From a virus (lineage: Duplodnaviria; Heunggongvirae; Uroviricota; Caudoviricetes), in the IMG/VR virus record IMGVR_UViG_2713896781_000014: a DNA stretch of 12,782 bases; one strand, written 5' to 3'. Position numbers: made by a program. Shown here in pieces: positions 1 through 3,000 of this stretch (its first letter is position 1; every line of letters begins with the position of its first letter).

Positions 1-3000
1 TCGTCCGGAATGGCGGCGCAAATAAAGACTTTACTCATTTTGTTTTAACCTCATTACAGATTTCAGGGTGAACGAATCCCTGCCATTGCTGGCATTTTTA
101 ATCCGTTGGTATGGCGTTAATATGGCTGGCGGGTTATCCAGCCGGTATTTCGTTATTCAGGTTCAGCGATACTTTTTTTAACGGGAGGCATTCACCGGGG
201 ATTTTTTGTTCGTCCCTTACCTGAATGCAGGATGACTTACTGTCATAAATTCCGGTAATCACATTTTGTGGCTCACCCGTTATAAGAAAAACGGTCATCA
301 CCAGTGCAAATGCTGAAGTCACTGCTGTTCTCCGATAATACCAAGTTCAAGAAGGGCAATTCTGGAAAGTATGGAATTATCATTGAGAAGATAAGGTTCA
401 TATTTTCTCATCTTAATGGCATCTTCCGTAAACTCCCGGTTACTGAGCAGAACACCAATATCAAAACAACCTTCAGACGTATTAACGTTTNNNNNNNNNN
501 NNNNNNNNNNNNNNNNNNNNNNNNNNNNNNNNNNNNNNNNNNNNNTTGTCACTTAAGCGTATGGTCAACCTGACAACCCGGTGTCCTCAACGGGGAAGGA
601 ATAACCCCTCCATACTTACCGCCGCGCCATTTCGCGGATTGCCACAACCGGAAGCGCACGGTCGACGAAAATTTAACGACAGGCTATCTATGAACCAGCT
701 ACCTCGCCGTGCGCTTTCGCGTTATGGTCTGACTTTTCAGAGAAATATCCTTTCAGTAAACTGTCAGTGCCGGATGTTCACCCGTGTCCGGCGCACGCAC
801 TCCACTTCACCCGTGGAGAACTCCTTAATTACCAACCCTCAGGAGGGTGAATGTTAAAATCAACTCTTATTGCTAAATGCCTTTATCAAAATCGCATGGT
901 AAGCAGCATTTCAATAGGCGAGTCTGCAGTTAAAAGTATTTTCGAAGAGTACTTTCCCGGGCATGATTTTAATAAATGGAATACCAAATTACCGCCAGCA
1001 GTTTCAACGCGTATTCTGAAAGCAACCGAAAGAGCAAGTACAATTCGCGTTAACTATTTCATTAAAGATTTGTGGGATCTTTGATATCCACAGAGCCTAA
1101 AGTATGTGCATATGGATGTGCTATTATGCGCCCTCGCAGATTTGCATCATTTTCTAAATTCACTGAACGAAACAGGGCATCAACAAGGCTCTGTACAATG
1201 CAAAGGCAATCGAAGACTGTCGCCGTTTCTGTTTTGATTGATGAAAGAACATGGCCATTCACGCAAACAGAAATTACCCGTTTATTAACATCGCTTTCCT
1301 GCTTTTGATTATCAGAACCATATAGCCCAGAAAAAGCATTGCGCACATTACGAACCATATTATCGATGGTTTCTTTTTCTGCGGTACTAAGGTCAAGAGT
1401 AGCCAGTTGTGAACGAACTATATTCGATGCCATTTCCTGTAATGGCGTTGGTAAATCTTTAAATTCCATTATTAGCCTCGTTGGTTAGCTATTAACGTGG
1501 GTATGTAATCATTCTGGCAATGCTTAATGCCGCTGCTTTTTCCAGATTGGTGATATCCTGCTCCAGAGCGGACAGATTTTCAGCCTGCTTAGCCCTGGCT
1601 TCATTGGCCCATTTCAGGTCCTGCACCGCCTTAATTTTCTGGTGCATCCACTCATAAAGTTCATCATCGGTATAGTCTGGCGCGATGATGACGGGGTCTC
1701 GTTTCTGCATGTCGGCTCCTTGTGGTTAGCGTTGCCTGCTTTTTAACCACGTCAGGCGAGGTGGTATCCTCTGAGGGGTCTGTTACTCGAGAGGAAATTG
1801 GTTATGAATACAATCAAGTTTTCTTGCCCAGAATGTGGTGGCTAAGTCTTTGACACATCCTTTAAGCCGCAGGGCTCTGACAGTTTCGCGGGAGCCATCT
1901 GCAAAAATTGTGGTCACCTTGTAACTGAAGATGAGTCCTCGCAGTTCGATGACGAAATCGTTGACAATATCTTCGGTGCACTCACCAGAGACTTTCTGAA
2001 GTAAAGGCGCATACCGCTTAGTTACCGCTCTGATAACTCTTACCTGTCCGGCAATGGCGCTGATATCAATATAAAGCGCCATCGCTGTTTCTTTGCTGAT
2101 CCCTGGACGCCTTCCATTCTGATGTTTGACTTCGCCCACTGAGAAATCCTCTGCTTCCCCTTAACGCCGGGTAGCGGAACTGTTTGCTGAGAACACCGTG
2201 CGGTGTCTTGATGAGTAGAATTTAGAATAGCCTAAGAGTTATGGTTAAGCTTTTTGTGTAGAAAAACCTAAGCTTCTTGATGTAAAAAACACAAGTATTT
2301 GAAAGTTTGTGCTTTTTATTACAGAGAGTTGCGAAAAAAAGGGGGGTTATTTATTTGCGCTTCTTTTGCGAGCTTTGAGTAGTTCTTCAAAAAGTTTGTT
2401 GAAATTCTCAACTCGAGCACGCATCTCTGACAACAGAGCCTTTTGCTCTGACTCAGGCAGTGCGTCGAACAGTTGAAGCAACTCTTTTTGATCTTCTGTC
2501 AGATTGACTGGCTGATTATCTGGGATCGGTTCGCCTGGTTGCTTATCTTCATCTCCAAAAAGAAGCCAAGTCGGCGAGCACTGAAGCGCCTGGCTCAGTG
2601 CGAATAATCTCTTCCCCGCTGGCTGTGTTTCATCTCTTTCCCATTGAGAAATTGTTACGTGAGCCACTTTGACCAGCTTACCTAATGCGGCCTGAGACAG
2701 TTTTAATTTTTTTCGCCTGTATAAGAGGCGAGCACCGAAGGTTTCGTTTTTCATATTAGGTAATTCTAATTTTTCTTGACTTAGGTTTCTCTACGATCTA
2801 GTTTCCTTAGGAAAATCTAAGGGGTTCGATATGTTGAAAATTGATGCTATAGCGTTTTTTGGCAGCAAAACAAAGCTTGCCAATGTCGCAGGAGTTAGGC
2901 TGGCAAGCGTTGCTGCATGGGGGGAACTGGTTCCTGAAGGTCGCGCGATGCGCCTGCAAGAGGCATCCGGCGGGGAACTTCAGTACGACCCCAAAGTTTA

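Follow-up and report, generated by a model that had tools for sequence, protein, structure and literature searches.

The closest described counterparts of the locus analysed in this work are the operons of the dicBF type, which are present in most genomes of Escherichia coli and in several prophages of each enterohaemorrhagic (EHEC) strain. In the cryptic K-12 prophage Qin the operon comprises ydfABC, the dicF region, dicB and ydfD. It holds a long untranslated region that contains dicF (PMC5069750). Here we consider the corresponding operon in a stretch of 12,782 nucleotides (nt) from a virus of the class Caudoviricetes (IMG/VR record IMGVR_UViG_2713896781_000014; the whole stretch is referred to as the window), in which two small convergent genes, designated A (77 amino acids, aa) and B (135 aa), are located between ydfC and the leader of the DicF small RNA (sRNA). 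Gene B belongs to the early-left operon on the minus strand, and gene A is antisense to it. A second relevant system is SieB (superinfection exclusion B) of the prophage Rac and of phages lambda and P22; made by the prophage, SieB causes the growth of related phages to abort while sparing its own phage (PMC10883804). In the Rac prophage the order of genes is racR (-), ydaG (-), ydaF (-), sieB (+, convergent, with a 4-nt overlap), kilS sRNA (-) and kilR (-). In phage P22, escape from SieB involves Esc as well as an antisense RNA that comes from the transcript of pL. A comparable logic is known for BstA, a prophage defence gene that is accompanied by a cognate self-immunity determinant, the anti-BstA element, beside the repressor.

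The extent of the additional DNA was delimited by comparison with Qin. BLAST aligned positions 1710-1472 of the window (ydfC and 20 nt) to K-12 Qin with 95% identity and positions 837-546 (292 nt) with 96.9% identity, and the two matching segments abut directly in K-12. Because they are contiguous there, only 838-1471 is extra, which makes the true insertion 634 base pairs (bp) long, with one end 13 nt ahead of the ATG of gene A and the other 2 nt ahead of the ATG of gene B. An earlier analysis of the window without database searches (the sequence-only reading) had assigned ~900 bp to the extra DNA and included in it a GC-rich block; the length was overestimated, and the block turned out to be the normal Qin-type ydfC-dicF spacer. 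The contrast in GC content on which it had remarked is real (0.47-0.53 across 546-850 versus 0.37-0.43 across 851-1469), and the two open reading frames (ORFs) are as it had placed them, at 851-1084 (+) and 1062-1469 (-), with 3' ends overlapping by 23 nt. The window prophage resembles Qin in its ydfC (95% identity), leader (97%) and DicF (76.7 bits in the RefSeq locus L001), and differs from it in that the slot is empty in Qin, where ydfC abuts the leader, and in that a 118-aa gene takes the place of ydfA and ydfB in the window prophage, which lacks both.

Joined into one query, the two flanks were both found in 3002 genomes. In most of these the slot is empty and Qin-like, with a span of 531 bp, while filled alleles span 1093-1165 bp. 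Other sampled alleles possess at least seven plus-strand genes unrelated to A (91, 73, 151, 63, 92, 69 and 66 aa), most of which are convergent with a gene that has the same N-terminal module as B; some alleles contain a plus-strand gene alone, or none. Searches of Pfam and NCBIfam with these alternative genes returned nothing, and those of PADLOC returned only noise (E>=0.006). In a separate search of 5426 complete genomes of E. coli, 4314 (~80%) matched part of the query, chiefly the GC-rich block, and 645 had the whole A/B allele. The variable cargo slot suggested earlier was thus confirmed between ydfC and the DicF leader: most relatives have either nothing or a different gene at this position, and neither A nor B is a core lambdoid early gene of the kil, cIII or sieB kind conserved there. 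From these comparisons we conclude that 838-1471 is an interchangeable cargo cassette at the junction of ydfC and the DicF leader. Another cargo position in a dicBF-type operon is seen in L016, a related prophage of E. coli, where a PaaA2/ParE toxin-antitoxin pair (1694-2172) separates the repressor from the DUF1391 (ydfA-type) gene.

The pair formed by A and the C-terminal domain of B (B-core) is the most widely distributed occupant of the slot and has been found in temperate phages of ~10 enterobacterial genera, in most cases one or two genes behind a CI-type repressor. We examined 93 loci with A from public assemblies, GTDB representative genomes and IMG/VR, and found a convergent B-core in 91 of them, which are all of the informative phage or prophage loci. 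Of the two remaining loci, one is a contig broken off within A, and the other is a non-phage homologue with 43% identity from Psychrosphaera. About 64 of the 91 loci are near-identical copies from E. coli, so the independent evidence amounts to ~27 diverged loci with different repressors and neighbours. All 21 cross-genus loci that were read base by base keep the overlap of the 3' ends, which is 23 nt long in 19 loci and 26 nt long in two. In nine loci from prophages of Serratia, Klebsiella, Dickeya and Xenorhabdus, A is always convergent with a B-core gene, and in these genera B-core follows a CI/S24-type repressor directly or with one gene in between. B-core does occur without A, namely in 201-aa variants from E. 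coli and Salmonella that comprise the N-terminal module, B-core and a C-terminal extension and face an unrelated 63-aa gene, and no informative phage locus was found to have A without B-core (0/91). On the strength of these loci, A and B-core are regarded as a conserved convergent pair. The 'undescribed small system' proposed by the sequence-only reading accordingly survives as a conserved, uncharacterised two-gene cassette, and one third of the region that it had flagged is the known DicF leader.

Unrelated convergent pairs from the same slot also overlap, by 23 nt (L012, 2061-2083), 23 nt (L015, 3584-3606), 11 nt (L014, 2015-2025), 41 nt (L104, 1146-1186) and 32 nt (L107, 1017-1048). The lengths of all the overlaps in the slot, including the 23 and 26 nt of A/B, equal 2 modulo 3, which corresponds to the same relative reading phase and is probably a general property of convergent overlaps. 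In cassettes from outside E. coli, DicF was not found at the Rfam gathering score. In the Klebsiella locus L008, the early-left strand has a hairpin with a T-run at 4868-4911, ~90-130 nt beyond A. The element shares 74% identity with the 3' half of DicF, scores below the Rfam threshold for this family and may be a DicF-like terminator or sRNA beside the stand-alone cassette.

Both genes have matches in PHROG families, and their divergence pattern is that of proteins. Homologues of A form 33 clusters with 53-96% identity, most of them exactly 77 aa long and with an invariant N-terminus (MLKSTLIAKCL), in Klebsiella/Raoultella, Serratia, Dickeya, Yersinia, Morganella, Salmonella, Xenorhabdus, Proteus and Photorhabdus. 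Between genera, synonymous sites are saturated (synonymous divergence, pS, 0.6-0.9), while nonsynonymous divergence (pN) is only 0.12-0.30 for A and 0.27-0.48 for B-core. Small ORFs in AT-rich DNA that RefSeq calls only 'hypothetical protein' might be chance ORFs, in which case the whole of 546-1469 would be a non-coding leader; we consider this explanation refuted by the fixed length of the homologues in ~10 genera, by pN values well below pS, by the PHROG matches and by the confident structural model of A. Judged by these patterns, A and B are real genes under purifying selection.

Structure prediction, which had been suggested for both proteins, was informative for A and not for B. The AlphaFold2 (AF2) model of A, with a mean predicted local distance difference test (pLDDT) score of 96.8, is a compact soluble bundle of five helices, for which no solved structural relative was found, while the model of B (pLDDT 44) is too poor for a fold search. 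Searches of Pfam (E<=1), NCBIfam and PADLOC (E<=1) with A gave no match, and profile searches against PDB sequences gave nothing for A or B-core; B and the homologues of B-core also remained without matches in Pfam, NCBIfam, PADLOC and PDB. The sole family match of A is a PHROG annotated as 'unknown function' (Table 1), B likewise falls in PHROGs to which no function is assigned, and the sequence-only reading was right in recognising neither protein. No Pfam or PHROG annotation relates A or B to kil, cIII, N or ral, and no paper that names the accession or PHROG of either protein was found in the literature. One public source calls the identical 77-aa protein 'dGTP triphosphohydrolase'; we reject this name because no family, PDB-sequence or fold search backs it, and it looks like an annotation error. 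Outside phages, a metagenome-assembled genome of the marine bacterium Psychrosphaera sp. has a solitary gene for an A-like protein, with 43% identity to A over 72 aa (L022, 3989-4228). It lies between chemoreceptor-like and glycoside-hydrolase-like genes, with neither B-core nor any phage context.

Gene B is a composite. Its N-terminal module (N-module) is common to many proteins encoded directly after ydfC; the alignment displays an invariant N-terminus joined to unrelated C-terminal tails, and the N-terminal part alone matches phrogs 6937, 2151 and 9419. The remaining part aligns with stand-alone proteins of 77-95 aa that are encoded convergently to A in other genera. According to these alignments, B is a slot-specific N-module fused to B-core. 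An exhaustive HMMER search with B-core found five genuine representatives among 1.8 billion cluster representatives, and a word-indexed search found close E. coli relatives and nothing further; two low-complexity repeat proteins matched by HMMER were regarded as spurious. B-core has been seen alone, fused to the N-module, fused to a head resembling a ClpX-type zinc finger and fused to a YdfC-like head, which suggests that it is a portable binding module. The latter two states are represented by L094 (4212-4685, -) and L101 (4212-4793, -), where B-core is preceded by an N-terminus that resembles a C4 zinc finger of the ClpX type (FCHFC...CSDC) or by a head with a YdfC-like segment in it.

The plus-strand genes of the slot have their translation initiation region in common. 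Upstream of the genes of 77, 91, 73, 63 and 92 aa the same sequence extends to 0-4 nt from the ATG and includes the Shine-Dalgarno sequence CCCTCAGGAGGGTGA, and it is not present at the empty K-12 site. Since five unrelated genes possess it, the ribosome-binding site (RBS), which lies at the edge of the DicF leader, is a socket that they have in common. The near-perfect RBS reported earlier is indeed found before the ATG at 851, where AGGAGGGTGA, with its AGGAGG motif, directly precedes the start codon; it is not peculiar to the 77-aa gene, as four other unrelated genes share it. The occurrence of many unrelated genes on one socket could mean that the act of transcription outweighs the product. 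The plus-strand gene would then be a transcriptional insulator or regulator, and convergent transcription, perhaps together with A itself, would silence the toxic DicF and dicB in the lysogen or tune the switch between lysis and lysogeny. Transcription of the plus strand would collide with the transcript bound for DicF, dicB and exo, and in other genera the cassette adjoins the immunity region, both of which agree with such a role. On the other hand, the strong conservation of the A protein, including its invariant N-terminus, indicates that the product matters. Proteins of the A family are not consistently basic (median pI 6.8, range 4.6-9.5), neither the A nor the B family is consistently basic or acidic, a helix-turn-helix motif was looked for in A without a match, and the obligatory B-core partner would be left unexplained. 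We therefore consider an insulator or regulator very improbable.

A hint of a promoter for A comes from the stand-alone cassettes. At ~35 nt ahead of the gene they share a conserved element, which consists of an inverted repeat and TGGTATCTT and resembles an extended -10 sequence. A general scan for promoters and terminators gave counts not above those in shuffled sequences, and a look through the literature yielded no mapped antisense start sites for the ydfC-dicF spacer. The motif AACCAC-N10-GTGGTAT, an inverted repeat with an extended -10-like TGGTATCCT, occurs in the window at 1745-1767 (+); 0 occurrences are expected from shuffles. The site is on the antisense strand, with the 118-aa gene and ydfC on its two sides, and a 13-codon ORF, MNTIKFSCPECGG, with its stop, follows at 1804-1845 (+). 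In Serratia prophages the same motif precedes A by ~35 nt, and in E. coli C (L107) it precedes an antisense gene of 66 aa. The motif may act as a portable promoter or operator, and its place in the window may be a second, decayed antisense slot.

In its location the cassette is most similar to sieB of Rac. A takes the place of sieB, DicF that of kilS, and dicB that of the FtsZ-inhibitor gene kilR, all in the same orientation; A is antisense to the early-left operon and lies between the first small pL genes and the dicB-type division inhibitor, which is a positional analogy. However, A is a soluble, all-helical protein of 77 aa, whereas SieB is an inner-membrane protein of ~160-190 aa with transmembrane helices, and the escape factor proposed below is a separate protein encoded on the opposite strand, not an internal translation product. 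Membership of A in the SieB family was rejected, as there is no Pfam SieB match and no transmembrane segment. The resemblance of A to SieB, as far as the analogy goes, is positional and logical only. With BstA the cassettes from outside E. coli share the adjacency to the immunity region and, by analogy only, the logic of a blocker with a phage-borne escape determinant; they differ in the absence of any sequence similarity or PADLOC match, and in that the escape determinant proposed here is a protein and not a DNA element.

We tentatively favour the possibility that A is an exclusion-type protein expressed from the prophage, that B-core is its early neutraliser, and that antisense transcription helps to shut A off. 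A would be a moron in the sieB-equivalent position and would hinder incoming phages in their lytic development. Activation of the early-left promoter, upon induction or upon infection by a phage that bears the cassette, would lead to early synthesis of B-core, which would neutralise A by direct binding. The gene map shows that the early-left transcript which reaches DicF, dicB and exo crosses the whole of gene A in antisense orientation, so any such transcript is antisense to the entire gene; being antisense to the A mRNA, it would lower the expression of A. Through neutralisation by B-core together with this antisense effect, a phage with the cassette would escape its own exclusion function. 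A bolder extension, which we think unlikely, is that the junction is a dedicated 'expression socket' for interchangeable anti-phage genes expressed from prophages, that A/B-core is a new two-protein exclusion system with self-immunity, and that B-core also acts as an anti-defence gene in phages that have it alone or in fusions. In this reading A, with a fold that has no solved relative, would block the development of phages, and B-core, an immediate-early protein of the phage, would be its specific inhibitor. With its interchangeable antisense genes and single RBS, the junction is a compact, easily cloned place in which to seek exclusion or anti-defence functions.

Several observations speak against the exclusion hypothesis. 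A has no membrane segment (grand average of hydropathy -0.13, no hydrophobic stretch), no known defence domain and no match in PADLOC-DB v2. A scan for the sigma-70 consensus upstream of A in the E. coli version found no site with >=9/12 matches, and the -10-like element of Serratia and Klebsiella is degenerate there. The poor model of B proves nothing about a complex of A and B. Further, the physical overlap by itself would favour co-inheritance, an A-like protein occurs alone in the Psychrosphaera genome, and in L012 and L014 operon-strand proteins that are 88% identical face two unrelated plus-strand genes, which shows that the plus-strand genes are exchangeable on their own. The last two observations, together with the alleles that have a plus-strand gene alone or none, also favour the main alternative, in which A and B are functionally unlinked accessory genes, each with its own role in early lytic growth or lysogeny, kept together by nothing other than the overlap of their coding regions, because recombination would rarely separate them without damaging both. 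Against this alternative, every informative locus has kept the pair, although synonymous sites are saturated and the phages are highly mosaic and differ in their repressors and neighbouring genes, and separation is evidently possible yet one-way, with B-core found without A and never A without B-core in phages. We regard such a purely mechanical linkage of the two genes as less likely than not, and as only slightly less likely than the exclusion hypothesis.

The one-sided occurrence of orphans is also what would be expected of a toxin-antitoxin module. The cassette has in common with type II systems its small size, two genes, strict pairing and orphans of one partner only, and AF2 predicts little order for B-core by itself, as is often the case for antitoxins; PaaA2/ParE and hok/sok modules do occur in such prophages. 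A would then probably be toxic and B-core its antidote, and the module would stabilise the prophage or, in the manner of abortive infection, kill infected cells. However, genes of type II systems are co-directional and co-transcribed, while A and B are convergent, with overlapping 3' ends, in all loci examined, and are not bicistronic. B is in the repressed early-left operon, so a constitutively made toxin A would be unopposed in the lysogen. No toxin or antitoxin domain was found in A, B or the homologues of B-core in Pfam, NCBIfam or PADLOC, nor was there any match among PDB sequences. We judge a toxin-antitoxin or abortive-infection module quite improbable; like the insulator, it is less consistent with the convergent layout and the strong protein conservation than exclusion with self-immunity. 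In the window, the sok antitoxin RNA (RF01794) is matched over its full length at 7633-7782 (+) with 103.9 bits, which indicates a hok/sok-type module in the right arm of the prophage.

The GC-rich block outside the insertion requires a correction of annotation, as it is the DicF leader and not cargo. It is homologous to the K-12 ydfC-dicF spacer, and in L001 DicF lies directly beyond it. The sense strand folds with z = -3.1, and none of 100 shuffled sequences folds as well. Ten aligned alleles of the leader (79-98% identical) have two near-invariant blocks, a long closing helix and swapped hairpin tips, and one stem changes among them from GGGG/CCCC to GAGG/CCUC and to UGGGG/CUCCA. The near-invariant blocks are at ~546-583 and ~610-665 (the minus strand is the RNA sense), the flanks of the alleles are only 79-90% identical, and the hairpin tips between the blocks have been exchanged wholesale among the ten prophage alleles. 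The operon strand contains no ORF of >=37 aa, and the alleles differ by indels of 1, 3 and 4 nt; a 103-aa ORF on the plus strand was ruled out by these frame-breaking indels and by the swapped hairpin tips. The block at 546-837 is the ordinary, already-described leader of DicF: conserved, structured and non-coding. Rfam matched no family in the block (unmasked locus, E<=1) and nothing in 546-1469 as a whole, either in the window at the gathering threshold or in the unmasked locus at E<=1; the nearest matches are DicF itself and an STnc100-like match beside it, in the dicB leader, with 38.7 bits, below the gathering score of 47. The near-invariant core may bear on the processing of DicF or on read-through of the DicF terminator into dicB. 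The put sites of phage HK022 offer a parallel, in that they too are structured RNAs encoded in cis on an early-left transcript without an N gene and with an internal terminator to pass (here the DicF terminator, upstream of dicB); the leader is much longer and has no significant sequence similarity to them. A put-like antiterminator was rejected as a candidate for the core, the best word shared with putL/putR being a 9-mer (E 0.54).

The features of the locus are collected in Table 1. The sequence of 546-1469 is 100% identical in EHEC lambdoid prophages of serogroups O26, O103 and O145, and the same sequence is found, identical, in records of the 'PPompW' prophage. The operon and its strand are taken from the annotation of L001, which is 100% identical and in which the order is DicA-like repressor, 118-aa gene, ydfC, 135-aa gene, DicF, dicB, DUF1482 gene and exonuclease. 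RefSeq names the product of dicB in this locus 'cell division inhibition protein DicB', and its annotation agrees with the flanks assigned by the sequence-only reading, a YdfC-position gene on one side and dicB on the other.

Table 1. Positions of the features of the cassette and of its surroundings in the window
Feature	Position	Strand	Basis or remark
Gene A, 77-aa all-alpha protein, antisense to the early-left operon	851-1084	+	phrog_10348, function unknown
Overlap of the 3' ends of A and B, 23 nt	1062-1084		kept in cross-genus loci
B-core domain, residues ~58-135 of the 135-aa protein	1062-1298	-	aligns with stand-alone 77-95-aa proteins
N-module (MEFKDLP...), residues 1 to ~50-57 of the 135-aa protein	1299-1469	-	phrog_1363 match
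Translation-initiation 'socket' CTCAGGAGGGTGA, directly ahead of the plus-strand gene	838-850	+	same upstream sequence before five unrelated genes
Distal part of the long untranslated DicF leader (ydfC-dicF spacer), outside the insertion	546-837	-	96.9% identity to K-12 Qin over 292 nt
Spacer between ydfC and B with a GAGG ribosome-binding site for B; 1472-1491 common to K-12	1470-1491	-	sequence; BLAST boundary at 1472
ydfC, right flank of the slot	1492-1710	-	95% identity to K-12 ydfC; RefSeq 'protein YdfC'; phrog_1744
DicA-like repressor	2347-2754	-	RefSeq annotation of L001
Run of 55 N	491-545		272 bp in L001 (2729-3000)
dicB, visible part, start codon inside the N run	319-490	-	translation NVNTSEGCFDIGV...; RefSeq DicB at L001 2557-2745
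DUF1482 (ydfD-position) gene, downstream of dicB	134-322	-	Pfam PF07358, E 2.8e-15; RefSeq 'DUF1482 family protein'; context

According to L001, the run of N conceals the DicF sRNA (L001 2920-2971, -; Rfam RF00039, against a gathering score of 48), the 5' leader of dicB and its start codon, and the two lengths given in Table 1 show that masking does not keep the length of the sequence. DicF, directly to the left of the region flagged by the sequence-only reading, was therefore hidden from it. Far from the cassette, at 11013-11253 (+), the window contains a cluster of tRNA genes, of which ARAGORN finds three (Met-CAT, Lys-TTT and Arg-TCT) and Rfam at its gathering threshold two.

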